From: an uncultured Armatimonadetes bacterium
Lineage (GTDB): Bacteria; Armatimonadota; Fimbriimonadia; Fimbriimonadales; GBS-DC
Assembly (NCBI GenBank): GCA_937139515.1
Contig: CAKZQI010000174.1
Coordinates: 1 to 48,260 of the forward strand
Length of the DNA stretch: 48,260 nucleotides
Direction: 5' to 3'
Both the position numbers and the translations under genes were made by a program. A model generated the notes under the pieces. That model was not told the origin of the DNA. It did no database searches and saw nothing but the letters and a program-made list of their open reading frames with translations. Below, piece by piece: positions 1-33,910 of the stretch (positions within the stretch are counted from its first letter, which is position 1; every line of letters starts with the position of its first letter).

Positions 1-1962
1 CCCATGAGAAAGTGGTTCAACACGAACTACCACTACCTCGTCTCGGACATCCCCGTGAGCCAGTGGTTCGGAACGAACCAGTTCTACTCAGCAACTGAGA
101 TTCCGAAGCCCGCTCAATTCACGCTCCACTGGCGCAAGCCACTGGAAGCCTTCCAGAAGCACATGCAGGGCTATCCTTACCTTATCGGTCCCTACACCTT
201 CCTGCGCCTGAGCCGAGGTGTAGAGATAGAGCAACTGCCTGCAGTACTGGAACAGCTTTTGCCCGTGTATGTAGAAATGCTGAGCGAACTGCAAAACGCT
301 GGGGCAGAATATGTCCACATAGATGAACCCGCCTTTGCGATGGATGTACCAGAAAGCCATGTGCAGGCAATCCAGTCGGCTTACAAGACGCTGGGCACCC
401 AAGCGAAGTTGCTGGTGTTCGCTTACTACGACAGCATAGATTTCCTGCGCGCACTCTATGACACGCCGATTGCAGGGATCGGTTTAGACCTCATCCGAGG
501 CAAGGCGAACCTCAGCCACCTGAGCCAACACGGTTTCCCCAGCGACAAAATCCTGATTGCAGGCGTGGTAGATGGGCAAAATGTGTGGAAGACCGACTTG
601 GCGAAGACCGCCGAGCAGGTGCGCCAACTCCAATCCCAGACGGGAGCCGAGGTCTGGATAGCGAACTCGGCACCGCTGTTCCACCTGCCCGTCACGGTCG
701 CCCCAGAAGAACAGTTAGACCCTGCGCTGAAAGAGCGCATCGCCTTCGCTAAGGAGCGACTGCAAGAACTGCGCCTGCTGAAACAACTCCTGACGGGCGA
801 AGCAGGCGAGGAGGCAAGCGCGTGGAACACCTATCAACACTCCACCGACCCCTGGTACTCGTCTGCGGTTCAAGAGCGCGTAGCGAACCTCCAAGAATCG
901 GACTTCCAGCGCGACCTGCCCTACAAAGAGCGTGTCAAGCTCCAGCGGGAACGCCTACCCCTGCCTCCTCTGCCCACCACGACCATCGGGAGCTTCCCCC
1001 AGACGCCCGAAGTGCGCCAGATGCGCCAAGCCTACCGCTCCAGCAAAATCGCGGCGGAGGAATACGAGCGCTTCATTCAAGAGCAAATCCAAAAAGTAAT
1101 CGCCTTCCAAGAAGAAATCGGGCTGGATGTGCTGGTACACGGCGAGTTTGAGCGCACCGATATGGTGGAGTTCTTTGGCGAAAAGATGGAAGGGATCGCC
1201 TTCACCCAGCAGGGCTGGCTCCTCTCCTACGGCACACGGGTCTATCGCCCGCCGATTATCTACGGCGATGTGTCGCGCCCTCACCCGATGACCGTCAAAG
1301 AAATCACCTACGCCCAATCGCTGACCCAGAAGCCGATGAAGGGCATGCTGACCGGTCCTGTGACGATTATCGCTTGGAGCTTCGTGCGCGAGGACATCCC
1401 CGTAGAGCAGGTCGCCTACCAAATTGCGCTAGCTATCCAAGACGAGGTGCGCGACCTGGAGAACGCAGGCATCAAGGTCATCCAGATCGACGAAGCTGCG
1501 TTCCGCGAGTTGGCACCGCTCAAGCGGGCGCACTGGGACGAGTACTTCCGATGGGCAACGCGCTCGTTCCGACTGGCATCGCGTGCCAAACCCGAAACCC
1601 AGCTCCATACTCACATGTGCTACTCCGAGTTTACGACCGTCCTGCCGTATATTGACCAGATGGACGCCGATGTGATTACGATCGAGGCGACACGCTCCAA
1701 GGGCGAGGTAATCGGCGCCTTTGAACACTACAACTACGAGCGCCAAATCGGTCCAGGGGTGTACGACATTCACTCGCCTGCCATCCCCAGCGTCGAGTCC
1801 ATCCAGCAGATTATTGAGCGGGCGGTGCGGGTGTTCCCCCCAGAGCAGTTCTGGGTGAACCCCGACTGTGGCTTGAAGACGCGCAAATGGGAAGAGGTGG
1901 AGCCTGCCCTGCGCCATATGGTTCAGGCAACCCAGACGATGCGCCAAAAGCTCGCGCCGTAG
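1..1962 (+). CDS. metE: Cobalamin-independent methionine synthase (5-methyltetrahydropteroyltriglutamate--homocysteine methyltransferase), 5' end cut by window edge
   Basis: The ORF is open from base 1. Two Meth_synt halves are present, with characteristic motifs KWFNTNYHY, IDEPA, HTHMCYSEF and NPDCGLKTR. The window starts about 110 codons into a normal MetE. Confidence 0.9.
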   Translation, partial: PMRKWFNTNYHYLVSDIPVSQWFGTNQFYSATEIPKPAQFTLHWRKPLEAFQKHMQGYPYLIGPYTFLRLSRGVEIEQLPAVLEQLLPVYVEMLSELQNAGAEYVHIDEPAFAMDVPESHVQAIQSAYKTLGTQAKLLVFAYYDSIDFLRALYDTPIAGIGLDLIRGKANLSHLSQHGFPSDKILIAGVVDGQNVWKTDLAKTAEQVRQLQSQTGAEVWIANSAPLFHLPVTVAPEEQLDPALKERIAFAKERLQELRLLKQLLTGEAGEEASAWNTYQHSTDPWYSSAVQERVANLQESDFQRDLPYKERVKLQRERLPLPPLPTTTIGSFPQTPEVRQMRQAYRSSKIAAEEYERFIQEQIQKVIAFQEEIGLDVLVHGEFERTDMVEFFGEKMEGIAFTQQGWLLSYGTRVYRPPIIYGDVSRPHPMTVKEITYAQSLTQKPMKGMLTGPVTIIAWSFVREDIPVEQVAYQIALAIQDEVRDLENAGIKVIQIDEAAFRELAPLKRAHWDEYFRWATRSFRLASRAKPETQLHTHMCYSEFTTVLPYIDQMDADVITIEATRSKGEVIGAFEHYNYERQIGPGVYDIHSPAIPSVESIQQIIERAVRVFPPEQFWVNPDCGLKTRKWEEVEPALRHMVQATQTMRQKLAP

Positions 1963-1983: not shown

Positions 1984-3108
1984 ATGCGACGCTTCGTATG
2001 GCTATGCGGTCTAATCTTGCTGTGGAGTGCGGTGTGGGCACAGCCTGCCGACCGAATTAACGCAGGCGATAAAGTGCGCATCACGGTGGAGGGGGACGCC
2101 TCGCTCTCGCGAGTCTACACGATTGATGCCCAGGGCAACCTCACGATGCCCCTGATCGGCAGCCTGCCCGCCAGCGGGCGCACCCCCACCGAACTGGCAA
2201 CCGAAATCGCCAAACGGCTCCGCGAGGGCAACTTCATCCGCGACCCAAAGGTCTCCGTTGAGATTGTGGAGCAGGCGAAAGCGCTCGTATCGGTGACGGG
2301 CGCTGTGCGTCGGGCGGGTGAGTTTGAACTGCGTGCAGGATGGCGATTGGCAGACGCCCTGCGTGAAGCCGAACCGACCAGCGTGGCAGACCTGAGTGCC
2401 GTACGACTGGAACGACTGGACGGCACACGCCAGACCATCAACCACCTCCGCTTCGTTCAGGAGGGTGATGAGGGAGGCAACCCGCTCCTGCAAGCGGGCG
2501 ACCGAATCTTTGTGCCCTTGTCGCCTGCGGGGCAAAATGTACTGGTGCTGGGAGCGGTGCGTTCTCCGGGAACTTACCCCATCCGTGAAGCGCGCACGCT
2601 CCTTGAGGCGTTGGGGCGCGCCGGCGGGACACTCCCGAATGCAGACACTGTCCAAGTCACCATCCGACGCGCCAACCAAGCCGAGCCGACGCGCATCAAC
2701 CTCAACACCCTCACAGGCGATATAGAACTCCAACCGGGCGACCAGATTACTGTGCCCTATCAGGCGACGCGCCAGTTCGTGGTGGTGCGCGGGGGCGTAC
2801 GCAACCCAGGCTTGGTCAACTATGTGGAGGGCATGACGCTCACCCAAGCGGTTGATGCAGCGGGCGGTCCAATCGCCGAGGCGCGCTTGGAGCGGGTGCT
2901 CATCTTGCGCCCCCAACCGCAGGGCAACCCGCGCCGTATCACGGTGAACCTGCTGGAGGTCGCTCAGGGCACGCGCCCTGATGAACTTATCCAACCGGGC
3001 GACACAGTGGAAGTACCTGCCATCACTCGGCGCACTACCTCGCCCGAAGAGCCGCTTCGGGTGGTGTGGTTGATCCTGAGCATCATCTTCCTCATCACAC
3101 GGCGCTAG
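1984..3108 (+). CDS. Polysaccharide export protein (Wza-like, Poly_export + SLBB repeats)
   Basis: N-terminal signal peptide (LILLWSAVWAQ). Poly_export-like segment GDKVRITVEGD...GNLTMPLIGSLPASGRTPTELATEIAKRL. Three SLBB-like units (GAVRRAGEF, GAVRSPGTY, GGVRNPGLV). C-terminal hydrophobic helix. Confidence 0.8.
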   Translation: MRRFVWLCGLILLWSAVWAQPADRINAGDKVRITVEGDASLSRVYTIDAQGNLTMPLIGSLPASGRTPTELATEIAKRLREGNFIRDPKVSVEIVEQAKALVSVTGAVRRAGEFELRAGWRLADALREAEPTSVADLSAVRLERLDGTRQTINHLRFVQEGDEGGNPLLQAGDRIFVPLSPAGQNVLVLGAVRSPGTYPIREARTLLEALGRAGGTLPNADTVQVTIRRANQAEPTRINLNTLTGDIELQPGDQITVPYQATRQFVVVRGGVRNPGLVNYVEGMTLTQAVDAAGGPIAEARLERVLILRPQPQGNPRRITVNLLEVAQGTRPDELIQPGDTVEVPAITRRTTSPEEPLRVVWLILSIIFLITRR

Positions 3109-6302: not shown

Positions 6303-7490
6303 ATGCAAACCGCACTTCACGAGCCTTTGCGCTTAGAGGATTATGTAGTCCATCCAGAGCGGGGGTTCTTACCCCCGCAAGACCCGCTCCCACGCCTCCC
6401 CGACCCCTACTACGAGCCGTGGGAAGCAATTGCGCACGACCTGCCCAAACTGTTAGTGGCAGGACGCGTCCGCAAGGCTGTTAATCAGATACCCTTGCTC
6501 AGCACCGAACGGCTCCACACCGAGGCGGAGTGGCGTCGGGCGATGCTCATCCTATCTTACATCGGGCACGGGTATGTGTGGAATGGGGAGACTCCGCCCG
6601 AGTCCATCCCTGCGAACCTCGCCGGGCCCTGGTACGCCGTCAGCGAGCGGTTGGGGCGACCGCCAGTGCTGTCCTATGCCTCGTACGCTCTGGATAACTG
6701 GCGACGGTTTGACCCCAGCGAGCCAATCGCTTTGGGCAACATCGCCCTGCTCCAGAACTTCTTGGCGGGCTTAGACGAAGAGTGGTTCATCCTCATCCAT
6801 GTGGATATTGAGGCGCGTGCGAGCGATGCCCTGCGAGTCATCCCCCAAGCGTTGGAGCAAGCGGAACGGCGCGACCTGCGCGCCCTCACCCAATCGCTCC
6901 TACAGGTTGCCACGACTTTGGAGGCGATGTACGCCACGCTGGCACGCATGCCCGAAGCCTGCGACCCCTACATCTACTACAACCGCGTGCGCCCCTACAT
7001 TCACGGCTGGAAGAACAACCCCGCCCTCCCCAAAGGCTTAATCTACGAGGGGGTGGAAGCCTACAACGGACAGCCTCAAATGTTTCGGGGTGAGACGGGC
7101 GCGCAGAGCAGTATCGTCCCCACTCTGGATGGACTGCTCGGTATTGAACACGCCGAAGACCCGCTCCGAACCTACCTGATGGAGATGCGGTTCTATATGC
7201 CCCCTGCCCATCGGCGCTTCATCGAGGCGGTAGAGAATCGTTCCCAAGTGCGCCAGTGCGTGCTGGAAAGCGATGATGCCGACCTGCGCCACGCCTACAA
7301 CGCCTGCGTGGAGGGCGTGCATCGGTTCCGTGCGCTCCATCTGGAGTACGCGGCGCAGTACATCTACAAACAGCAAGCCAAGAGCGCCAAAAACCCCACC
7401 AAAGTCGGCACGGGGGGCACGCCATTTATGCGCTACCTCAAGAAACACCGCGACGAAAGCGAACAGCACAAGGTGCAGGTTGGAGGGTGA
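6303..7490 (+). CDS. Indoleamine 2,3-dioxygenase (IDO) family heme dioxygenase
   Basis: The C-terminal half parallels human IDO1 as I recall it: GETGAQSS (GGSAGQSS), YMPPAHRRFI (YMPPAHRNFL), LRHAYNACVEGVHRFRALHLEY ([22 protein letters not shown]), GTGGTPFMRYLK (GTGGTDLMNFLK). Confidence 0.85.
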   Translation: MQTALHEPLRLEDYVVHPERGFLPPQDPLPRLPDPYYEPWEAIAHDLPKLLVAGRVRKAVNQIPLLSTERLHTEAEWRRAMLILSYIGHGYVWNGETPPESIPANLAGPWYAVSERLGRPPVLSYASYALDNWRRFDPSEPIALGNIALLQNFLAGLDEEWFILIHVDIEARASDALRVIPQALEQAERRDLRALTQSLLQVATTLEAMYATLARMPEACDPYIYYNRVRPYIHGWKNNPALPKGLIYEGVEAYNGQPQMFRGETGAQSSIVPTLDGLLGIEHAEDPLRTYLMEMRFYMPPAHRRFIEAVENRSQVRQCVLESDDADLRHAYNACVEGVHRFRALHLEYAAQYIYKQQAKSAKNPTKVGTGGTPFMRYLKKHRDESEQHKVQVGG

Positions 7491-18850: not shown

Positions 18851-21205
18851 TCACCACAACCGACTGCTCGCAAGGTAGAGCAAGAGCGCGGTATCGGCAC
18901 GGCTGAGGTTCGCGTCAGGTTGGAAGCGCAAACCGTCGGCATCCAGCGCCTCAGTGCCATCCCAGAGCAGGCTAATCAGCCGTCGCTCGCTCAAGGCGCG
19001 GATAAACGGTAGGTCGGGGTCGTCGGGGGCGACATCGGCGTAGGGCGTGGTGGCGTCTGGGCGCGTTTGCCACGCCGCAGGCTCCAGCAGTGCCATCGTG
19101 CGCACTAACCAGCGCGCAAGATCGCGACGCACAACGGGTGCGTTCGGCTCAAATCGGCGGTTGGGCGTGCGTTCAATCACGCCCAGCAGAAACAGATTCT
19201 GCACGGGAACCGCATAGGGGCTTCCAAACAGCACATCGGTGAACGCCAACCCTTGAAAGCGCTCTTCGGGAAGGTCAGGGCGCAGAGTGCGCAGATGATG
19301 CCACAAAATCCGTGCCGCTTCACCTCGCGTGAGGGCTTGCTGGGGTTCAAAGCGCTCCGAGGGGAAGTAGCCCCGCGCCGACAGGAACTGGATTGCCTCA
19401 AAATGCTCGGTCTGGGGCGTCACATCGGGGAACCAGTAGATATAGACCCCGTGACGAACCAATTTGCGCTGGATGTCCGCCACGCGCAGTCGGCGCAACG
19501 GGATGCCTGTCTGAAGGCTCAGCACCGCAGCGGCGCCCGCTGCCTGCCCCATATTCATCCGCACAGGCTCCATACGCAGAGTGCCGATAGCGACATGGGT
19601 CGCTGAGACACAGGTACTGACCAGCAAACCCTCCACACGCTTGGGCACCAGCACACCGTAGGGCACTTGGTACCACGGCGTGTACTGGAAAATCCAGAAC
19701 TCGCCCTCGCCCATGTGGGGCATTGGCTCCGGCTCTACCCCCTCGGGCACGACCACGCGGCGCACGGCGTGCGAGTCCATCGGGTAGTCGCCAATCGCAA
19801 TCGCGTCGTGCCGAATACGCTCGCGGGCGTACATCACATCGCTCTGATTGAGTATCACCTCACCCTCAATACGGCGCGCCTTGCGCACATACAACACGGG
19901 GGGCAGGTTGTCGCTATCGCGGAACTCGTCCTCCGCTAACCACAAGTTGCGCTGACCGAACACGGTCTGGATATAGTGTAAGTAGCCCAGCACATGGTTT
20001 TTGTAAATCTCATAGATGCGCTGGCGCTCTTCCCAACTGGCGGTTGGGTAGCGGTAGTTGAACTCCTGGAGCGTCGTACCGTGCGGGTGTTGATTGATCT
20101 CAAATTTGTTATTGGGGAATCGTCCGAACTGGGCTGCCCACGACTGCTCCCACCGGGGCGACAGCACATACTCACGGGGATTGTAGTTGGGCGGGGGGGT
20201 CCGCACCTGCTCAGTGGGGTAGTTTTGGACGAGCATCAAGATGGCGTAGCCCGGAATGCGTCGGTCGCCCTGCCCCGTGCTTCCAGGGAGTAGGCGGTCG
20301 TTGAGGCGGTCGTAGTAGATGACGCCCGCGTGAGGCTCTTCGGGCGTTCGTGGTTCGCGCCCGATACGATAGGGAGCGCCTGCCCACGCAGCGATGTCGC
20401 CTTCAGCAGTAGCATCAATCACGATATCGGCGTTGAAGCGCCCCCGACGCGTACCGTCCAGCGTGACAAACTCCACCCCCGTTATGCGATTGCCCTGCTT
20501 GAACACGCGGGTGGGACGCACACCGAAGTAGAGGTCAATGTTCGGCTCGGCATACACCATCTCTTTGATGAGCATGTTGGCGACCCAAGCCTCGTAGTTC
20601 AGACCATTGCGGTAGATGTAGCTGGTTGTATCAGCGCCCTGCGCCTTATAATACGCTTCCACTTTTTGGCGGAACTCTTCAAAAAGCCCGTTGATGCGGG
20701 AGGCTTGGCGCACATCGGTGATAGAGACGCCGTTGACTATCATGCCCCCCAAGCGATTAGTGGGTTCCAGAAGCGCCACCTTGACCCCCATCCGGGCGGC
20801 GGTGATGGCTGCACCCACACCCGAAGCGGTTCCGCCCACGATCACAATCGGGTAGCGCGCCTCGCGAGGCAGTTCACGGTAGGTACGGTCAGTGCGTGCC
20901 ACAGGCTCCGAGGCTCTTCCATCGGGGTAAACTGCTTGAACCGCCAGCGTGTAGGTCTGCCCGGGCGTCAACCCGGTGAAATCGTAGAAGCGCGCCTCGG
21001 CGTCCAGTTCGCGCACCAACTGACCTTCCAAGTAGACACGGTAGGCGGAGGGATTTTCGCCACGCGGAGGGAGCCAAAACAGGGTAATTCGTTCCGTACT
21101 GCGCGGGATGGCTTCTACTGAGCGGGGTACCGCCTGCGCCCAAGCCGAAACTAACGCCAATGCCAGCCAAGAACCCACCAGCCAACTCCTCACTCTCTGC
21201 ATCAT
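18851..21205 (-). CDS. Cell-surface FAD-dependent oxidoreductase (signal peptide + FN3-like + FAD_oxidored + 3 SLH-like repeats)
   Basis: Signal peptide LALALVSAWAQA. FN3-like ITLFWLPP...YRVYLEG...TPGQTYTLAVQAVYPDG. Dinucleotide fold IVIVGGTASGVGAAITAARMGVKVALLE. C-terminal SLH-like units (FPDVTPQTEHFEAIQFLSARGYF, FTDVLFGSPYAVPVQNLFLLGVI, YADVAPDDPDLPFIRALSERRLI). Confidence 0.8.
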   Translation of the reverse strand: MMQRVRSWLVGSWLALALVSAWAQAVPRSVEAIPRSTERITLFWLPPRGENPSAYRVYLEGQLVRELDAEARFYDFTGLTPGQTYTLAVQAVYPDGRASEPVARTDRTYRELPREARYPIVIVGGTASGVGAAITAARMGVKVALLEPTNRLGGMIVNGVSITDVRQASRINGLFEEFRQKVEAYYKAQGADTTSYIYRNGLNYEAWVANMLIKEMVYAEPNIDLYFGVRPTRVFKQGNRITGVEFVTLDGTRRGRFNADIVIDATAEGDIAAWAGAPYRIGREPRTPEEPHAGVIYYDRLNDRLLPGSTGQGDRRIPGYAILMLVQNYPTEQVRTPPPNYNPREYVLSPRWEQSWAAQFGRFPNNKFEINQHPHGTTLQEFNYRYPTASWEERQRIYEIYKNHVLGYLHYIQTVFGQRNLWLAEDEFRDSDNLPPVLYVRKARRIEGEVILNQSDVMYARERIRHDAIAIGDYPMDSHAVRRVVVPEGVEPEPMPHMGEGEFWIFQYTPWYQVPYGVLVPKRVEGLLVSTCVSATHVAIGTLRMEPVRMNMGQAAGAAAVLSLQTGIPLRRLRVADIQRKLVRHGVYIYWFPDVTPQTEHFEAIQFLSARGYFPSERFEPQQALTRGEAARILWHHLRTLRPDLPEERFQGLAFTDVLFGSPYAVPVQNLFLLGVIERTPNRRFEPNAPVVRRDLARWLVRTMALLEPAAWQTRPDATTPYADVAPDDPDLPFIRALSERRLISLLWDGTEALDADGLRFQPDANLSRADTALLLYLASSRLW

Positions 21206-27357: not shown

Positions 27358-28887
27358 ATGAGAAAAATCTTCGCATGGAGTGCGGTGTGGTTGCTGATTG
27401 TTGCAGGCTCGGCACAGATAGGGAGCGGCTTGTGGCCCGACGCCTCCGCCCTGCGGAACGCAAGCACGCTAAATGTGCAAATTGTGCGACAGTGGTCGAC
27501 CACCCTCAACTTCCAGACCATCAACATGACCGAGCTGTTCTACAACTCGTGGGAGGTGCGCAACGGCGTGGTGCAGACCGTGCCTGTTCACGCTTTCTTA
27601 GCCGTGCCCTCAGGGAGTGGCACCTTTCCTGCGGTGATTTTGGCGCACGGACTGGGGGGTACAGCCGATGCGAATGTGACGGCACGCTTCGCCGCTACCC
27701 ACGGAGTGATTGCCTTGAGCTACACTGCACCCGGCAATGGCTTATCGGGTGGAGCGCGCTACACGCTGGAACTGCTATTTGACACCTACCCCAACGCTCG
27801 TGGCTCTTGGTTCTGGGCGCACGCGGTGGCAGGGAGCCGAGCGATTACACTCCTGAGCCAACTGCCGAATGTGAACACCACGCGGATTGGGATGGTCGGC
27901 TACAGTGCGGGGGCGATGGCGACGCTGAATGTCAACGGCTTTGACAACCGCCTGCGTGCGGTGGTGGCAATCAGTGGCACGGGCGGGCTACGACGCTCCG
28001 CACAGGATGGCTCGTGGGTCGTCCACCTTCTGGCAGGTGCGGGGCTGACACCGAACGCTCCCCAGTTCCAACGGCTCTGCGACACTGTAGACCCGCTCAA
28101 TCAGGCAGGAAGCCAGCACGCGCCCGTGATGCTGGTCAACGGCGCGCAGGACGAGTTCTTCCCGCTCCCCAGCACGCTTCAGACCTTCAACGCCTTCCCC
28201 GGCACTGCCCATCGCATCGTGATTATCCCGAACTGGGACCATGGGCTGTTCACTCTCAACCTGCCTGCCCCTTACGAGACCTTCAACAACAGCGACTTCG
28301 CTAATCGGCGGGTGGATGCGGCGGTCGCTTTCTGGATTGGGCACCATCTGCGGGGCAGTAGCAACTACCCGAATGTGCCACCGATGCCCACCGCAAGCAT
28401 CTACGATGTGCTCGGCATCACTGCGCTCTCGGGCACGCTCAGCACTTCCTATCAAGTGGTGGAGGTTCACGCTTACTACTCCAACGACCGCTCATGGCTC
28501 TACGGGGGACAGCGACTGCAAGACCGAAACGGTAGCACTTGGTACAAGCTCGCCACCGGTCTGCCGTGGAGCAACTTCAACCCCAGCAACACCGTCTACT
28601 TTAGCGAGTTCCGATTGCGTAATAACACTCTCGCTCCCGAGTTCTGGCTCACGAGTGTGCCTGCCCTGCCTGCAGGGTTCGTTCCGCGCATTCGTCCGAT
28701 GCCGAACCCGCCCCGCACGCCAGGCGATGTGAACGGGGATGGCTGTGTGAACGATGCTGACCTGCTCGCCGTGCTGTTCGCCTTCGGCAATACGGGCACA
28801 GGTCTGCCTGAAGACGACAACGGCGACGGCGTGGTGAACGACGCCGACCTGTTGCGCGTGCTGTTCAACTTCGGGTTCGGGTGCTGA
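27358..28887 (+). CDS. Secreted alpha/beta hydrolase (dienelactone hydrolase/esterase-like) with C-terminal dockerin-like module
   Basis: Signal peptide. Nucleophile elbow MVGYSAGAM. The C-terminus carries two EF-hand-like dockerin repeats, GDVNGDGCVNDADLLAVL and DDNGDGVVNDADLLRVL. Confidence 0.8.
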   Translation: MRKIFAWSAVWLLIVAGSAQIGSGLWPDASALRNASTLNVQIVRQWSTTLNFQTINMTELFYNSWEVRNGVVQTVPVHAFLAVPSGSGTFPAVILAHGLGGTADANVTARFAATHGVIALSYTAPGNGLSGGARYTLELLFDTYPNARGSWFWAHAVAGSRAITLLSQLPNVNTTRIGMVGYSAGAMATLNVNGFDNRLRAVVAISGTGGLRRSAQDGSWVVHLLAGAGLTPNAPQFQRLCDTVDPLNQAGSQHAPVMLVNGAQDEFFPLPSTLQTFNAFPGTAHRIVIIPNWDHGLFTLNLPAPYETFNNSDFANRRVDAAVAFWIGHHLRGSSNYPNVPPMPTASIYDVLGITALSGTLSTSYQVVEVHAYYSNDRSWLYGGQRLQDRNGSTWYKLATGLPWSNFNPSNTVYFSEFRLRNNTLAPEFWLTSVPALPAGFVPRIRPMPNPPRTPGDVNGDGCVNDADLLAVLFAFGNTGTGLPEDDNGDGVVNDADLLRVLFNFGFGC

Positions 28888-28905: not shown

Positions 28906-29997
28906 ATGGCGAAACTGCTGATTACAGGTGGAGCGGGGTTTCTGGGCTATCACCTCGCCCACCACTTCGCACAATACGGCGTACAGATCGCCCTGCTGGA
29001 TGTAGCGCCTTACGACGAGTCGGAGTACTCCACAGGCACCGAGTTTTACAACGCCGATGTGCGCGACCGTGAGGCGGTACGCCAAGTTTTCCAGAAGGCT
29101 CAGCCTCAGTGGGTCATCCACGGCGCCGCCGCTCTGCCCCTTTGGAAGCGTGAGGACATCTTCAGCACGAATGTGCAGGGCACACGCGTCGTGCTGGAAG
29201 AGGCGTTCCGAGCAGGCGTGGAGCGTGTGGCGCATGTGTCCTCTACCGCTGTGTACGGCGTGCCTATCAAACACCCCATAGAAGAGACCGACCCGATGGT
29301 GGGCGTAGGGCCCTACGGCGAGAGCAAAATCCGAGCCGAACAGGTCTGTGAGGAGTTCCGCCAGCAGGGGCACATCGTGCCGATTATCCGCCCCAAGACC
29401 TTCATCGGGCAGGCGCGGTTGGGCGTGTTCCAAATCCTGTACGACTGGGTGGAGTCGGGCGCGCGTATCCCGATGATAGGAAACGGGCGCAATCGCTATC
29501 AACTGCTGGAGGTCACCGACCTCGCCGAAGCCTACTATCGCGCGCTCACGGTGGAACCCGACAAAGCGAACCACACCTTCAACATCGGTGCGGAACGGTT
29601 CCAGACGGTGCGTGAGGACATTCAAGCGCTGTGCGACTTCGCTGGCTCTGGCGCGCGCCCGATGGGCACACCTGCTTGGCTTGTGAAACCCGTCTTGCGC
29701 CTGCTGGAGATACTCAAACTCTCACCGCTTTACAAGTGGGTCTATGCCACTGCCGACAAAGATTCGTTCGTCTCGGTGGAGAAGGCGAAGACGCTGTTGG
29801 GCTGGAGTGCGCGCTACAGCAACGCCGACGCGCTCATTCGTTCCTACGAATGGTACTTAGAGCATGCTTCGGGGCTGGAGGTCGGCACGGGAGTGACCCA
29901 CCGCGTGGCGTGGGAGCAGGGCGCGCTTCGGCTGTTCAAGTGGCTCTTAGGCGGGCGCAAGAAGCCTGCACGCTCCCTGAAAGCCTCGGGTAGGTAG
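28906..29997 (+). CDS. NAD-dependent epimerase/dehydratase (extended SDR)
   Basis: Rossmann motif LLITGGAGFLGYHL and catalytic YGESK. Confidence 0.85.
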   Translation: MAKLLITGGAGFLGYHLAHHFAQYGVQIALLDVAPYDESEYSTGTEFYNADVRDREAVRQVFQKAQPQWVIHGAAALPLWKREDIFSTNVQGTRVVLEEAFRAGVERVAHVSSTAVYGVPIKHPIEETDPMVGVGPYGESKIRAEQVCEEFRQQGHIVPIIRPKTFIGQARLGVFQILYDWVESGARIPMIGNGRNRYQLLEVTDLAEAYYRALTVEPDKANHTFNIGAERFQTVREDIQALCDFAGSGARPMGTPAWLVKPVLRLLEILKLSPLYKWVYATADKDSFVSVEKAKTLLGWSARYSNADALIRSYEWYLEHASGLEVGTGVTHRVAWEQGALRLFKWLLGGRKKPARSLKASGR

Positions 29998-30027: not shown

Positions 30028-30092
30028 CGTCCTGGCTCTCCGTCTTCTATGCACCTCCAGATTTCGTGGGTGAAGGCAGGAGAGCCAGGACG
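30028..30092. terminator. Long-loop inverted repeat between convergent genes (possible terminator)
   Basis: cgtcctggctctcc (30028-30041) pairs perfectly with ggagagccaggacg (30079-30092), with a 37-nt loop. No U-tract. Confidence 0.3.
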
Positions 30093-30106: not shown

Positions 30107-31126
30107 TTATCTGCGTCTGCGTTGACGAGCGCAGAGGATGCCCACTCCCGATGCCAACAGAAGCAGACTGCTTGGCTCAGGCACAGGCGTAATGGCGAAC
30201 AGCCCGCCGACATCGGTGAAACTGCCGTTCACCACCAGTACGCCGTTGCCCGAGAACGGCTCAAAACCGTTCCCATAGAAAGCGAGGCTCGTGGGGAAGG
30301 GGAACGCACCAGAGAACTGACCAAACGGCTGTGCGGAGGTTCCTCGCAGGAGCGTGAGCGTGCGCTGGGTGGTGGCAATCAGGTCGCCTTCGGTGTCAAA
30401 CACGAAACTCGCCAACCCAGAGCCGTTGCCCCCTGCTAAAGAGAGCGTGTCAATCAGGTTGGCTCCCACGATTGCGCCCGAGCCGTCGTACACAGGCTGG
30501 AAGCGGAACACCTGACCGGGGTTGCCTGCGAAGTTGGGGTCGTTCGTGTCGCCTGCGTAGATGGTTCCATTGCGGAAGGCTAAACCGCCCGCATAGCCGT
30601 TCCCGTAGGCACTAACCAGCTGGTTCACGGCGCCGTTCTGCACGGCGTAGAGGCGGTTGCTGTTCGGTCCATCTGCCCCAATCGCCAGCACTTGGCTTCC
30701 AGCAAGCGCAATCTCGGCTACATTCGGCAGACTACCGACGGGGGCGAGCAGGTTGGCCTGATTGGTGGTAAGGTTCCAGCGAAGCACGGTGTCCAAGTCG
30801 CCGTTTTCTGAGAAGAGCAGGGTGTCGTCATCTTGCCAGACCATTCCCCCGAAGAACTGCCAACTGCTTTGGGAGATTTGGGCGACCACTTGGCGGTTTT
30901 CAACGGCGATGCGGTTGTACACGGTGATACTCCCGCCACCACCAAACTGGTTCGTGGCAACGGCGAGCTTGCCTGAGGGGCTGATGGCGACCACACTGCC
31001 AGACAAGCCGAGCGAGAAGGTTCTGTAGCCGGTTGGGGGCGTGTAGCCCGACACTTGAGCGAGGGCGACCGTGAGGGTCGCAGTATAGAGCGCACCTAAG
31101 CCTAACAAAGTTTGTGTTGTTCGCAT
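30107..31126 (-). CDS. PEP-CTERM-anchored secreted protein, Gly-rich beta-repeat (propeller-like)
   Basis: ATG at 31126 lies 7 nt after AAAGGAGG. Signal peptide LLGLGALYTATLTVALAQ. C-terminal VPEPSSLLLLASGVGILCARQRRRR is the PEP-CTERM sorting signal. The body has repeated beta-strand/Gly-turn units. Confidence 0.85.
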   Translation of the reverse strand: MRTTQTLLGLGALYTATLTVALAQVSGYTPPTGYRTFSLGLSGSVVAISPSGKLAVATNQFGGGGSITVYNRIAVENRQVVAQISQSSWQFFGGMVWQDDDTLLFSENGDLDTVLRWNLTTNQANLLAPVGSLPNVAEIALAGSQVLAIGADGPNSNRLYAVQNGAVNQLVSAYGNGYAGGLAFRNGTIYAGDTNDPNFAGNPGQVFRFQPVYDGSGAIVGANLIDTLSLAGGNGSGLASFVFDTEGDLIATTQRTLTLLRGTSAQPFGQFSGAFPFPTSLAFYGNGFEPFSGNGVLVVNGSFTDVGGLFAITPVPEPSSLLLLASGVGILCARQRRRR

Positions 31127-31150
31127 ACCTGACCTCCTTTCGCGAGCGCG

Positions 31151-31182
31151 AAACAAAATCGCGCCCGACGCTTGTCAGGCGC
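31151..31182 (-). terminator. Intrinsic terminator (expression platform of the riboswitch)
   Basis: On the minus strand: GCGCCUGAC-AAGC-GUCGGGCGC (9 bp including one G-U pair), followed by GAUUUUGUUU, about 25 nt upstream of the ATG. Confidence 0.75.
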
Positions 31183-31372
31183 GTTCAGAGACGAGCGAAC
31201 CTTATGCTCACTCCGACCGCACCCTGTGCTCGCAGGGCGTCCCAATCGGGGACGCGGTCTCGCCGTGGCTGGGCATTCGGGCTTGTCCCCTCTAAGGAGG
31301 CTTACCGTTGCGGCACAGCGCCGGACTTGCACCGGACTTTCCCCACTCTTTCAGCCCCAGCACGACCTGGGG
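31183..31372 (-). promoter_or_regulatory. Cobalamin (B12) riboswitch-like aptamer
   Basis: On the minus strand: CCCCAG-GUCGUG-CUGGGG hairpin, then GGGGAAAGUCCGGUGCAAGUCCGGCGCUGUGCCGCAACGGUAAGCC, then ACAAGCCCGAAUGCCCAGCC. This matches the conserved GGGAA..GGUG..AA.UCC..GC.G..CGCAACGGUAA core and is close to the B12 box (AAGCCCGAAGACCUGCC in the E. coli btuB leader as I recall it). Confidence 0.7.
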
Positions 31373-31409
31373 CGCACACGGCGTGCGTGCTTTCTAAATG
31401 TACCCGATC

Positions 31410-32168
31410 TTACACCTTCCCAAACCGCTTCATCGCCTCAAAGCAGAGGCGGATGGTCTCCAGCGGGGTATGGGCGTAGGTCTCCTGCTCCACGATGTAC
31501 CATTCGGTCCCTCCGACCGTTTCGCAGGCGGTGAAGAACTCGTGCCAGTGGACTTCGCCTTCGCCAATCACGGCGCTATTGTTGGTGCTGGAGAACTCTT
31601 TGCAGTGGACGGTGAAGGCGCGCCCTGGATACTTGTGAACGAACGGCTCGGCGTGCGCTCCGCCATGCAGGGCGTTGCCCGTGTCGATCTGCATCACTAC
31701 CTCAGGCAGAGTGCTGCTGAAAAACACATCCCACGGCAGCTCGCCCGTAGCGGGGTCAGGTTGGAACTCCACCCAGTGGTTGTGATAGCCCGTGCGGAAG
31801 CCGTGAGGGGCTATCTTCTCTGCAATCTCGTTGAACAGCTCCGCAGTACGGCGCCAGTGGTCTAACGAGGCAGTGTACTCAGTGGGAAGCCCCGGCACAA
31901 TCAGGTACCGACATCCCAGCGTGCGGTGGAACTCAAGGGTCGGCTCTAACTGGTCTCCTAATAACTTATCTATCCCGATATGGGTTCCACAACATTCCAA
32001 GCCGTTGTCATCCAACATTTTGCGGAGCTCGCTGGCTTGGAAATCGTAGTAGCCTGCGAACTCCACGCCTGCATAGCCGATTTTGGCGACTTCAGCAAGC
32101 GTCGCAGGCAAATCACGCTTGCAATCGTCGCGCACCGAATAAAGTTGAACGCCTACTTTGACAGCCAT
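31410..32168 (-). CDS. Sugar phosphate isomerase/epimerase (xylose isomerase-like TIM barrel)
   Basis: MAVKVGVQLYSVRD...IGYAGVEFAGY...LGCRYLIVPG...GYHNH...DTGN...EQE pattern typical of AP_endonuc_2 family proteins. Confidence 0.85.
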   Translation of the reverse strand: MAVKVGVQLYSVRDDCKRDLPATLAEVAKIGYAGVEFAGYYDFQASELRKMLDDNGLECCGTHIGIDKLLGDQLEPTLEFHRTLGCRYLIVPGLPTEYTASLDHWRRTAELFNEIAEKIAPHGFRTGYHNHWVEFQPDPATGELPWDVFFSSTLPEVVMQIDTGNALHGGAHAEPFVHKYPGRAFTVHCKEFSSTNNSAVIGEGEVHWHEFFTACETVGGTEWYIVEQETYAHTPLETIRLCFEAMKRFGKV

Positions 32169-32272: not shown

Positions 32273-33526
32273 ATGACCCGATACTTTATCTCGGTCTGCC
32301 TGCTCGGTTGGGCACTGAGCGGATGCGGTACAGGCGGAGTGGGCGCGCCCAGCAGCCAAAATCAGCCCATTCAACAGAGGACACCCGTGAAAGTAGAACC
32401 TCAAATTGTGGATGCGAACCTGCGTTTCGGACTTCGGCTCCTGAACGAGCTGGATGCAAATCGTGAGACGCCGAACCTGTTCTTCTCACCCCTCTCGGCA
32501 GGAATTGCGCTGAGTATGGTGCTGAACGGGGCAGGAGGCGAGACCCACACCGAAATTGCCCGCACACTGGGCTACACCAACCTGAACCAACAAACTCTCA
32601 ACGCCGAGAACGAGGGGCTCATCCAGCTCCTGCGCTCGCCCGACCCCGAAGCGACGGTGGATTTAGCGAACGGGCTGTGGGTGCAAAATGGGTTGAACTT
32701 GCGCCTTGAGTTCGTGCGCACCCTGCAAAGCCATTTCAACGCCGTCGCCCAGACGGTGGAATTTGGGGCTGACCCAGAGGGTTCGGCAACTCAAATCAAC
32801 GGATGGGTGAAAGAGCAGACGCGCGGGATGATTGACCGCCTCTTCCAACCCAACGATTTTGACGAACGAACCCGTGCGGTGCTGGTCAACACACTCTACT
32901 TCAAGGGCAAGTGGCAAAGTCCCTTCAACAAGGAGGCGACCCAAGACGAGGACTTCACCTTAGAGGATGGCGACACCAAGTCGGTGCCGATGATGCGCCA
33001 GTTCGGGAAGTTTCCCTATCTGAAGGGGCAGGGCTTCCAAGCGGTGGGGCTTGCGTATGGCAAGGGTGAGCTGATGTTCTACCTCTTTGTGCCTGACACA
33101 GTTCAGGGGCTGAGCGACCTGCGCCAGCGCCTGACCCACGAAAACTGGAAGCGGTGGATGGAGCGTTTCCGAATGACCGACGGCGATGTGGCGATGCCCC
33201 GCTTCAAAATCGACACGAAGTTCCTGCTGAACGCACCCCTCGCCAAGATGGGCATGCCGAGTGCCTTTGATGAAGGGCGGGCGAACTTTGAACGGATGGC
33301 GCACACACCGGGCAATCGCTTGTTCCTCCAAAAGGTGGTTCAGCGGGCAGTGGTGCAGGTAGACGAGGAGGGCACCGAAGCCGCCGCTGCGACGGGCGTT
33401 CAGGTGGGCATCACTTCGGCACCCGTCAACACCTTCACGGTGCGCGCCGACCGTCCGTTTCTGTTCGCGATTGTCCACCAGCCGACGGGCACGGTGCTGT
33501 TTATGGGGATTGTGCGTGAGCCGTAG
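32273..33526 (+). CDS. Serpin family protease inhibitor, lipoprotein
   Basis: Lipobox LLGWALSGC. Serpin motifs NLFFSPLSAGIALSMV and VLVNTLYFKGKWQSPF. Hinge and reactive-centre loop VDEEGTEAAAATGVQVGITSAP, then FTVRADRPFLFAIV and GTVLFMGIV. Confidence 0.9.
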   Translation: MTRYFISVCLLGWALSGCGTGGVGAPSSQNQPIQQRTPVKVEPQIVDANLRFGLRLLNELDANRETPNLFFSPLSAGIALSMVLNGAGGETHTEIARTLGYTNLNQQTLNAENEGLIQLLRSPDPEATVDLANGLWVQNGLNLRLEFVRTLQSHFNAVAQTVEFGADPEGSATQINGWVKEQTRGMIDRLFQPNDFDERTRAVLVNTLYFKGKWQSPFNKEATQDEDFTLEDGDTKSVPMMRQFGKFPYLKGQGFQAVGLAYGKGELMFYLFVPDTVQGLSDLRQRLTHENWKRWMERFRMTDGDVAMPRFKIDTKFLLNAPLAKMGMPSAFDEGRANFERMAHTPGNRLFLQKVVQRAVVQVDEEGTEAAAATGVQVGITSAPVNTFTVRADRPFLFAIVHQPTGTVLFMGIVREP

Positions 33527-33607: not shown

Positions 33608-33680
<73 letters not shown>

Positions 33681-33834
33681 CATCTCCCTCCTGTGCTTCT
33701 AACCTAATCCCTGTTGATACCCTTTAGTCACCTGAGACTTGGCATTTGCCCTCGTGGGTGAGTTTGTTAGAGGGGGATGCAAACGAATAAGGTGCATTCT
33801 GATTGGGTTAGGTTGTAGAAAGTCTGGCTCCCGG

Positions 33835-33910
33835 GGCAGGATTCGAACCTGCGACCTGGTGGTTAACAGCCACTCGCTCTGCCGACTGAGCTACCCGGGA
33901 ACCTTGTGCC
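33835..33910 (-). tRNA. tRNA-Asn (anticodon GUU)
   Basis: Minus strand TCCCGGGTAGCTCAGTCGGCAGAGCGAGTGGCTGTTAACCACCAGGTCGCAGGTTCGAATCCTGCCCCGGGAGCCA. The anticodon loop is CTGTTAA and CCA is encoded. Confidence 0.95.

Follow-up and report, generated by a model that had tools for sequence, protein, structure and literature searches.

What is understood of how dedicated proteins (BtuG, BtuH, BtuJ and BtuK) capture vitamin B12 (cobalamin) at the cell surface comes almost entirely from gut Bacteroidota. BtuG1 consists of a seven-bladed B12-binding propeller followed by a C-terminal BtuH domain of ~250 residues and, since both parts are present, has two B12 sites (PMC10404256). BtuH2 binds B12 through its C-terminal globular domain, and its structure, 7BIZ, was solved with B12 bound (PMC8941943). 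BtuG and BtuK1 are Bacteroides propellers unrelated to one another, both of which bind B12 (PMC10404256, PMC13616437). Homologues of BtuH have been reported only from Bacteroidota and three Firmicutes (PMC8941943; the September 2026 review PMC13616437), and a search of the literature turned up no paper on homologues of BtuG or BtuH from either Armatimonadota or Planctomycetota. The present analysis concerns a stretch of 48,260 nucleotides (nt) from an uncultured Armatimonadetes bacterium (contig CAKZQI010000174.1), called the window in what follows, and in particular a gene on its minus strand that encodes a predicted beta-propeller protein with a PEP-CTERM sorting signal and that lies behind a leader of the cobalamin-riboswitch type.

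This locus is probably a B12-repressed, exosortase-sorted surface component of a system for scavenging corrinoids. Its leader resembles the described riboswitches of clan CL00101 (RF00174, RF01482, RF01689) in its core, B12 box, P1 helix and terminator, and in a regulatory hairpin whose 3' strand is predicted here to overlap the anti-terminator. It differs from them in having a compact aptamer and in its target, which is propeller cargo of the PEP-CTERM class and not one of the usual btu, cob, metE or nrd genes. As PEP-CTERM cargo, the protein has the customary putative signal peptide and C-terminal motif, and control of such cargo by a riboswitch has a precedent, since riboswitches for cyclic di-GMP (c-di-GMP) precede PEP-CTERM genes (PMC12530212). 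What distinguishes it from other cargo is that the riboswitch belongs to the cobalamin clan and that the family is linked to a vitamin-binding domain. Full-text literature searches turned up no paper connecting cobalamin riboswitches with PEP-CTERM/exosortase cargo, only the co-occurrence with c-di-GMP. An earlier, sequence-only reading of the window had called a corrinoid-capture class undescribed for such cargo.

The aptamer and its conservation

A scan of the whole 48-kb window with all 4227 Rfam families gave three matches above threshold: two tRNAs and a single riboswitch, RF01689 (AdoCbl-II, clan CL00101), at 31357-31266 on the minus strand. At 40.2 bits, the riboswitch match exceeds the family's gathering score (36.5 bits), with an E value of 3.2e-06 in that scan and 2.6e-08 in a local scan; a permissive local scan found nothing else of note beside it. 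The features of the aptamer, all on the minus strand, are these:

31261..31383, minus strand: cobalamin-clan riboswitch aptamer, defined by the RF01689 match and by the covarying P1 and hairpin in 16 leaders
31383-31377 (CGCCGTG) with 31267-31261 (CACGGCG), minus strand: P1 helix, which closes the aptamer
31372-31355, minus strand: aptamer hairpin CCCCAG/CTGGGG, which covaries (C-G to U-A, A-U to G-C)
31284-31271, minus strand: B12 box AAGCCCGAATGCCC, read in the sequence

The sequence-only reading had recognized the conserved core and the B12 box on this strand, and both are there. It had looked to RF00174 or RF01482 for a match; a match to the clan above the gathering score was indeed found, but the best family for the window copy is RF01689, while the leaders of some relatives score best with one or the other of the two families named. 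The element was also taken to end at 31372. Since P1 extends past the Rfam match, the aptamer in fact starts ~11 nt beyond that coordinate, at 31383.

Further evidence comes from an alignment (A3) of the leaders of 16 related loci; the proteins of these loci share 60-79% identity. P1 reads CGCCGTG/CACGGCG in the window and GACCGTG/CACGGTC in most relatives, so both strands have changed together. Compensatory changes affect two pairs of P1 and two of the adjacent hairpin. Ten leaders have an additional, optional insertion hairpin, which covaries at six of its nine pairs. Over the full 54-pair structure of the leader, 97.6% of the cells are paired. The structure holds 17 compensatory pairs, compared with 8.9 +/- 1.7 in shuffled alignments, none of 500 of which reached 17, and with one to five when partners were slid by 1-3 columns. 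Long runs are invariant in all 16 leaders, and conservation of the leader exceeds that of the protein it precedes.

The protein family, a small one found chiefly in Armatimonadota, was gathered in two ways. A word-index search returned 34 homologues, the named ones mostly from Armatimonadota (Fimbriimonadales, HR15, DC) and one, a partial sequence, assigned in its record to candidate division WOR-3. When 1.84 billion representatives were searched exhaustively with a HMMER profile, only 86 proteins reached E <= 0.001, 34 of them E <= 1e-30. A tail of the PEP-CTERM type closes most full-length members. The related sequences all come from metagenome assemblies, and their organism assignments were made by the depositors. 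Upstream sequence was sufficient for 27 distinct loci. In 21 of them a riboswitch of the cobalamin clan stands immediately upstream with a score no lower than the gathering score, and in five more there is one at E <= 0.0015. The remaining locus, L027, is the most distant (28% identical) and has a weak match of 23.4 bits. The riboswitch is kept upstream of orthologues from 100% down to ~40% protein identity, and a chance match is excluded because the same leader precedes the orthologue in 26 of 27 loci. By these sequence criteria, the window leader is a genuine cobalamin-clan riboswitch with an expression platform of the terminator type and a predicted response to ligand.

The closest relative, L032, is 79% identical and syntenic with the window locus. 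A full-length serpin gene, unusual for bacteria (window 32273-33526, plus strand), is syntenic with the propeller locus in the closest relatives, L032 and L033, and probably in L001.

Predicted expression platform and transcription unit

Between the upstream gene and the start codon, the following features accompany the aptamer:

31397..31402, minus strand: candidate -10 element TACATT (relatives have TATAAT or TAAAAT, 15-25 nt before P1, in alignment A3)
31215..31259, minus strand: regulatory three-way junction with two hairpins, one variable and one invariant, closed by GACCGC/GCGGTC
31237-31222, minus strand: the invariant hairpin, CCCTG-CGAGCA-CAGGG, a candidate P13 that can pair in all 16 leaders
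31177..31224, minus strand: predicted anti-terminator, GGGTGCG-G-TCGGAG (31224-31211) with CTCTGA-A-CGCGCCT (31190-31177)
31183-31150, minus strand: intrinsic terminator CGCGCCTGAC-AAGC-GTCGGGCGCG then ATTTTGTTTC (stem 31183-31160), from a terminator scan
31140-31133, minus strand: Shine-Dalgarno site AAAGGAGG, read in the sequence and ending 6 nt before the ATG (31126)

In the 16 leaders, all four pairs of the variable hairpin covary, and the closing helix can pair in 99%. On the 3' side of the junction there follow first a short helix, then a spacer that varies, and last the terminator. Cobalamin riboswitches use a kissing loop between L5 and L13 to stabilise the regulatory hairpin, and the invariance of the CGAGCA loop makes its hairpin a candidate P13 with an L13 kissing loop.

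The terminator scan found one site in the region. The sequence-only reading had described a stem of 9 bp (base pairs) with a U-tract; the U-tract is present, but the stem has 10 bp, eight of them G-C, and in relatives it is conserved or shows compensatory or wobble changes. The predicted anti-terminator excludes both this terminator and the invariant hairpin. When nascent leaders were folded after a cut before the 3' arm of the terminator, CGCGCCU paired with exactly GGGUGCG in 10 of 16, and in one further fold the 5' arm of the terminator paired with the GUGCG inside GGGUGCG. The pairing in these folds continues through G-UCAGGG/CCCUGA-A to give a helix of 13 bp. Of its cells, 97.1% can pair, and compensatory change is seen at two pairs, of which the window copy has one (UCGGAG/CUCUGA). 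The helix shares nucleotides with the invariant hairpin (CAGGG), with the helix that closes the junction (GCGGUC) and with the terminator (CGCGCC). This is probably the classic layout, in which ligand stabilises a regulatory hairpin beside the aptamer and so frees the terminator.

The Shine-Dalgarno site is where the sequence-only reading put it, before the ATG at 31126, and its AAAGGAGGT is invariant in 16 of 16 aligned leaders. Two pairings proposed by RNAalifold nearby were not adopted: one of GACC with GGUC on the 3' side of the site, which rests on G-U variation only, and one of GCGG with CCGC downstream of the terminator, which is missing from the subclade of the window. In the minimum free energy (MFE) fold of the window leader (31131-31159, minus strand), the U-tract region GAUUUUGUUUCGC pairs with GCGAAAGGAGGUC. 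Such a pairing would sequester the Shine-Dalgarno site in read-through transcripts; it is not obviously conserved in the other leader subclade.

The -10-like TACATT comes directly after the stop codon (TAA, 31412-31410) of the upstream gene, which encodes a xylose-isomerase-like TIM (triosephosphate isomerase) barrel (31410-32168, minus strand) and ends 8 nt before TACATT. A strict sigma-70 scan found no full promoter. Downstream lies a gene for an NAD-dependent epimerase (28906-29997, plus strand), convergent with the propeller gene. Because the downstream gene is convergent and the upstream gene ends before the -10-like box, the propeller gene is its own transcription unit, which bears out the sequence-only reading in calling it monocistronic. 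Between the two convergent genes, at 30029-30091, there is a perfect 13-bp inverted repeat, GTCCTGGCTCTCC ... GGAGAGCCAGGAC, with a loop of 37 nt and without a U-tract. It may be a bidirectional terminator or a site for protein binding.

The propeller protein

31126..30107, minus strand: coding sequence of 339 amino acids, from the open reading frame and its translation, with stop codon TAA at 30109-30107
residues 1-23, minus strand: putative Sec-type signal peptide, ending in ALA before QV, read from the sequence
residues ~27-314, minus strand: six-bladed beta-propeller, from an AlphaFold2 model
residues 314-339 (nt 30187-30110), minus strand: PEP-CTERM sorting signal, from family models, with the tail PVPEPSSLLLLASGVGILCARQRRRR

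The N-terminus, MRTTQTLLGLGALYTATLTVALA followed by QV, resembles a Sec signal, and the model shows a helix of low confidence there. At the other end, residues 314-338 match PF07589 (24.5 bits, cut-off 20.7) and TIGR02595 (20.6 bits, cut-off 16), so the sequence-only reading had the protein in the right class; the tail has the expected PEP motif, hydrophobic helix and Arg-rich end. No exosortase (EpsH/Xrt) was found among the Pfam-scanned open reading frames of the window.

The AlphaFold2 model, built on an alignment of 34 sequences, has a pLDDT (predicted local distance difference test) of 91.8 and a pTM (predicted template modelling score) of 0.86. Its 24 strands, arranged as six blades of four, lie between the signal peptide and the PEP-CTERM helix. 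Foldseek matched it to more than 1000 generic propellers in the PDB, and the best TM-scores (template modelling scores), normalised by target, belong to six-bladed folds: Pizza6 (0.75), Brat NHL (0.70) and SMP30 (0.64). Conserved motifs (SPSG, ENGD, GADGP, GDTNDPxFxGNPGQ, FDxEGD, GFEP) fall in the loops between strands 2 and 3 of successive blades. Pfam and NCBIfam scans of the propeller (E <= 1) gave no enzyme family at the curated cut-off.

The sequence-only reading had likened the protein to BtuG. The model is indeed a propeller, and a confident one, but it has six blades, and a relationship to BtuG was not detected by any of the means applied. The family profile found nothing relevant among PDB sequences at E <= 10, and no BtuG chain is among the top 50 Foldseek matches. 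These results, with those of Pfam and hhalign given in the Discussion, led to the rejection of the propeller as a BtuG homologue. Since it fails every BtuG test run, it is filed as cobalamin-riboswitch-controlled PEP-CTERM cargo of a new propeller family, whose function is predicted from its associations. The anchors differ as well: the signal peptide of the propeller has no lipobox cysteine and its anchor is PEP-CTERM, whereas BtuG is a lipoprotein. With BtuG2 and BtuK1 the protein has in common that it is a propeller in a B12-riboswitch locus and, presumably, that it is exposed at the surface; it differs from them in having six blades instead of seven and in showing no similarity to them in sequence. 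BtuG2 and BtuK1 bind B12 on one face formed by loops, and by analogy the propeller of the window might do the same.

A BtuH-like partner domain in related loci

Fetched loci were scanned with a hidden Markov model of a second domain, the H-domain. In 15 of the 23 distinct loci with enough downstream sequence, it lies directly downstream of the propeller or is fused to it; in eight, including the window and L032, the linkage is absent. Where it is a separate gene, the partner is a secreted protein of ~325 amino acids without a Pfam domain, closed by a double dockerin repeat with Gly-Cys at its very end, a tail that weakly matches the NCBIfam model for GC-type dockerins. The same module forms the C-terminal half of long family members. 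Clustering by BLAST had suggested that the second gene of the relatives was a tandem paralogue of the propeller. This was rejected on reading the sequences: the gene's match is confined to the C-terminal extension of long forms, and it is therefore a different domain.

What that domain is can be read from its AlphaFold2 model (pLDDT 93.6). Only three PDB chains matched it at E <= 0.001 in Foldseek: 8BLW_B, which is BtuG1 in the BtuB1-BtuG1 complex (E 2.6e-13, 25% identity), and 7BIZ_B and 7BIZ_A, the B12-binding lipoprotein BtuH2 of B. thetaiotaomicron (E 7.9e-10 and 3.0e-09). The sequence profile of the partner recovers the same proteins, namely residues 389-658 of 8BLW_B (E 4.9e-32) and residues 221-486 of 7BIZ_A (E 9.1e-25). 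By sequence profile and predicted structure alike, the partner domain is homologous to BtuH's B12-binding domain. Among the residues of BtuH2 that contact the ligand (listed in PMC8941943; a numbering offset of +100 was inferred from motifs), the partner family keeps Asn399 and Phe401, in an invariant GNAF, and Tyr510, in a nearly invariant GY. Trp511, Trp577 and Gln333 have given way to other residues, Leu578 is aligned with an aromatic Phe, and the insertion that bears His476 is missing from the family.

The resemblance to BtuH2, then, consists of the C-terminal globular domain with its GNAF and GY contacts, while the partner differs in lacking the PKD/Ig domains, the lipobox and the Bacteroides-specific insertion that carries His476, and in ending in a GC-type dockerin repeat. 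The resemblance to BtuG1 is one of arrangement: control by a cobalamin riboswitch, and an extracytoplasmic propeller followed by a BtuH domain in the same N-to-C order, fused or adjacent in relatives. The window family differs in having six blades where BtuG1 has seven, in having no btuB beside the propeller gene and, in the window, in having no H-domain. The resemblance to BtuG is one of role and domain order, not of family membership.

True fusions of propeller and H-domain, without a PEP motif between the two, number eight proteins. In one locus, L038 (3068-5674), a riboswitch (RF01689, 46.9 bits), a PduO-type cob(I)alamin adenosyltransferase (PF01923) and a propeller-BtuH fusion form one operon, which ties scavenging to activation of the cofactor. 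The sequence-only reading had reached a corrinoid-capture role by analogy only; the BtuH-domain linkage in 15 of 23 loci and this adenosyltransferase operon support the role independently.

A different junction occurs at L009 (3875-5854) and in P0304, P0307, P0320 and P0337, where the reading frame passes from the PEP-CTERM helix of the propeller straight on into the BtuH-like protein's signal peptide, so that gene callers give one protein of ~600-660 amino acids with an internal PEP motif. These forms may be two genes or one processed polyprotein.

Three Phycisphaerae-like contigs carry H-domain operons behind RF00174 riboswitches (75-83 bits). There the H-domain gene is preceded by the opening gene of the operon, which encodes a secreted beta-rich protein of ~375 amino acids (L035 3881-5008, L036 3890-5008, L037 3814-5004) with propeller-like repeat motifs, and is followed by a pseudopilin-like gene. 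The ~375-residue proteins end in an 'IPAPG...RRRRHA' tail or in a dockerin tail. They were considered as homologues of the propeller and rejected, as hhalign gave a suggestive but non-significant match (probability 5%, E 0.0075, 172 columns) and hmmsearch was negative.

The pseudopilin-like gene (~250-285 amino acids) stands directly after the BtuH-like gene at L010 5672-6484, L035 6148-7005, L036 6160-7002, L037 6194-7024 and P0031, a fused-form locus known from its gene layout alone. In four of these five loci it has the prepilin N-terminal methylation motif and/or a weak SBP_bac_10 match; the copy of L037 has no Pfam match and aligns by eye with the other two. Its product may belong to the riboswitch-controlled unit as an additional component.

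Other features of the window and of related contigs

As the sequence-only reading noted, metE, for cobalamin-independent methionine synthase, is in the window (4-1962, plus strand, truncated at the edge of the window). After it comes a gene for a Wza-like polysaccharide export protein (1984-3108, plus strand; Poly_export and SLBB). Wza-like export genes usually accompany PEP-CTERM/exosortase systems.

At 27358-28887 on the plus strand, the window encodes a secreted alpha/beta-hydrolase of 509 amino acids (weak S9/S15/DLH matches) whose tail, GDVNGDGCVNDADLL...NFGFGC, is the same double dockerin with Gly-Cys that ends the BtuH-like partners. This tail alone is common to hundreds of otherwise unrelated proteins, many from Armatimonadota, and because they share nothing else, the GC-type dockerin looks like a phylum-wide tag for anchoring to the surface.

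Two further genes are unusual for bacteria, one for an indoleamine 2,3-dioxygenase (6303-7490, plus strand) and the other for a large oxidoreductase dependent on flavin adenine dinucleotide, with fn3 and S-layer-homology domains (18851-21205, minus strand). The two tRNA genes are on opposite strands with 147 nt between them (33608-33680, plus strand, 63.8 bits in Rfam; 33828-33900, minus strand, 68.3 bits). Related contigs carry a cyclic di-AMP riboswitch (L025 4094-4230, 81.6 bits) and, upstream of thiC, a thiamine pyrophosphate riboswitch (L034 12385-12517, 70.4 bits).

Discussion

The proposed mechanism runs as follows. When intracellular cobalamin is plentiful, it would bind the aptamer and stabilise the three-way junction, including CCCUG-CGAGCA-CAGGG. 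The GGGUGCGGUC strand would thereby be held in the junction, and the downstream terminator would therefore form and stop transcription before the gene; the predicted direction of the switch is OFF. When B12 is scarce, GGGUGCG-G-UCGGAG would pair with CUCUGA-A-CGCGCCU, the terminator would be blocked and the gene transcribed. The read-through transcript would be translated from a strong Shine-Dalgarno site, and the protein, once exported by way of its signal peptide, would reach the cell surface through PEP-CTERM/exosortase sorting. The six-bladed propeller would there take part in scavenging corrinoids, most likely by binding a corrinoid on its conserved loop face or by passing one on together with a BtuH-type protein, in what we presume to be an uptake route across the outer membrane. 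The organism of the window would encode its BtuH-type protein elsewhere, if at all.

It is likely that the protein works in the acquisition of B12. That the propeller itself binds a corrinoid has a little less than an even chance of being true. A wider and more tentative proposal, not quite so well placed, is that a six-bladed corrinoid-binding fold unrelated to BtuG and a dockerin-anchored BtuH-type protein, with possibly a pseudopilin-like third member, make up a B12-capture apparatus of Armatimonadota and Planctomycetota. If that is true, the apparatus arose independently of the lipoprotein relay of Bacteroides, and exosortase cargo would have its first function in nutrient capture.

Several results weigh against this interpretation of the locus. 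The seven key pairs of the anti-terminator are invariant, and covariation is therefore neutral on them. The homology to a proven B12 binder lies in the partner domain, which was not found in the 48-kb window, and that family conserves only three of the eight ligand contacts of BtuH2. In Armatimonadetes bacterium DC, the partner gene lies away from the propeller gene, and no riboswitch was found for it at E <= 0.01. Beside the propeller gene there is no conserved transporter, BtuB-type or other, nor was a TonB-dependent receptor or btuFCD found there in the window or the 27 loci. (ATP-binding cassette ATPases near some loci were considered as a conserved transporter and set aside, being generic LptB/LivG-like genes in varying positions.) As for the propeller itself, it has no PF16819 match at E <= 1, where P0303, a BtuG1-like control protein recovered through its H-domain, scores 36.3 bits; hhalign against the G-domain of P0303 gives a probability of 0.4%; and the structural neighbours found by Foldseek are generic and include enzymes such as SMP30.

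The propeller might also be a scaffold or adaptor of the B12-scavenging apparatus, made only when B12 is scarce and not itself a binder. It might dock a BtuH-like binder, for example, or cap or recruit an outer-membrane channel. The partner, after all, is the only domain homologous to a proven B12 binder, propellers are common platforms for protein-protein interaction (WD40 scaffolds are among the top Foldseek matches), and physical interaction explains fusion and adjacency equally well. Against this, the riboswitch controls the propeller gene alone in eight of 23 loci, that of the window included; in those genomes, the propeller is the primary regulated product. Also, the partner in Armatimonadetes bacterium DC lies apart, with no riboswitch of its own, the partner has its own anchor in the GC-type dockerin, and the propeller modules of Bacteroides, BtuG and BtuK1, bind B12 themselves (PMC10404256, PMC13616437). 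A non-binding scaffold thus seems unlikely, if the most credible of the alternatives.

Perhaps, instead, the protein responds to B12 status while doing something other than uptake, as an adhesin or matrix protein that keeps cells near B12 producers or as an extracellular enzyme, like SMP30 or NHL proteins, whose product spares a B12-dependent pathway. PEP-CTERM cargo has classically been linked with exopolysaccharide and floc formation, and a Wza-like polysaccharide exporter is encoded in the window. The structural neighbours include SMP30/gluconolactonase and the luciferin-regenerating enzyme, and conserved acidic loop motifs (ENGD, GDTNDP, DxEGD, FEP) could bind metal. Yet such a function would leave unexplained both the recurrent adjacency to or fusion with a BtuH-type domain and the operon with cobalamin adenosyltransferase, and the Pfam and NCBIfam scans gave no enzyme family at the curated cut-off. 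We regard it as improbable. Least credible of all, and barely worth entertaining, is that the riboswitch-like element is a relic or acts in some other way, by translation only or as an ON switch. Its Rfam score is just 3.7 bits above the gathering score, and the pairing of the U-tract with the Shine-Dalgarno region in the MFE fold hints at a translational layer. Against this stand a leader better conserved than the protein across 16 loci, aptamer helices that covary, and a terminator and competing helix that are both conserved; moreover, characterised cobalamin riboswitches are overwhelmingly OFF switches.

Riboswitch-controlled corrinoid scavenging thus remains the preferred interpretation, and it points to a previously undescribed B12-scavenging system outside gut Bacteroides. 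BtuH-type domains now extend to Armatimonadota from the environment and to Phycisphaerae-like contigs, often out of hot-spring and bioreactor metagenomes, and there they lie behind cobalamin riboswitches, the unlinked gene of Armatimonadetes bacterium DC excepted. In Armatimonadota, they are paired with a different, six-bladed propeller, and the anchors are PEP-CTERM/exosortase and the GC-type dockerin in place of lipidation. For the PEP-CTERM cargo class, which is large and mostly uncharacterised, the locus offers a concrete and testable function for one member. The compact propeller is a candidate for a new B12-binding scaffold, and the operon may serve as a marker by which B12 auxotrophy or scavenging could be predicted for lineages that are uncultured.

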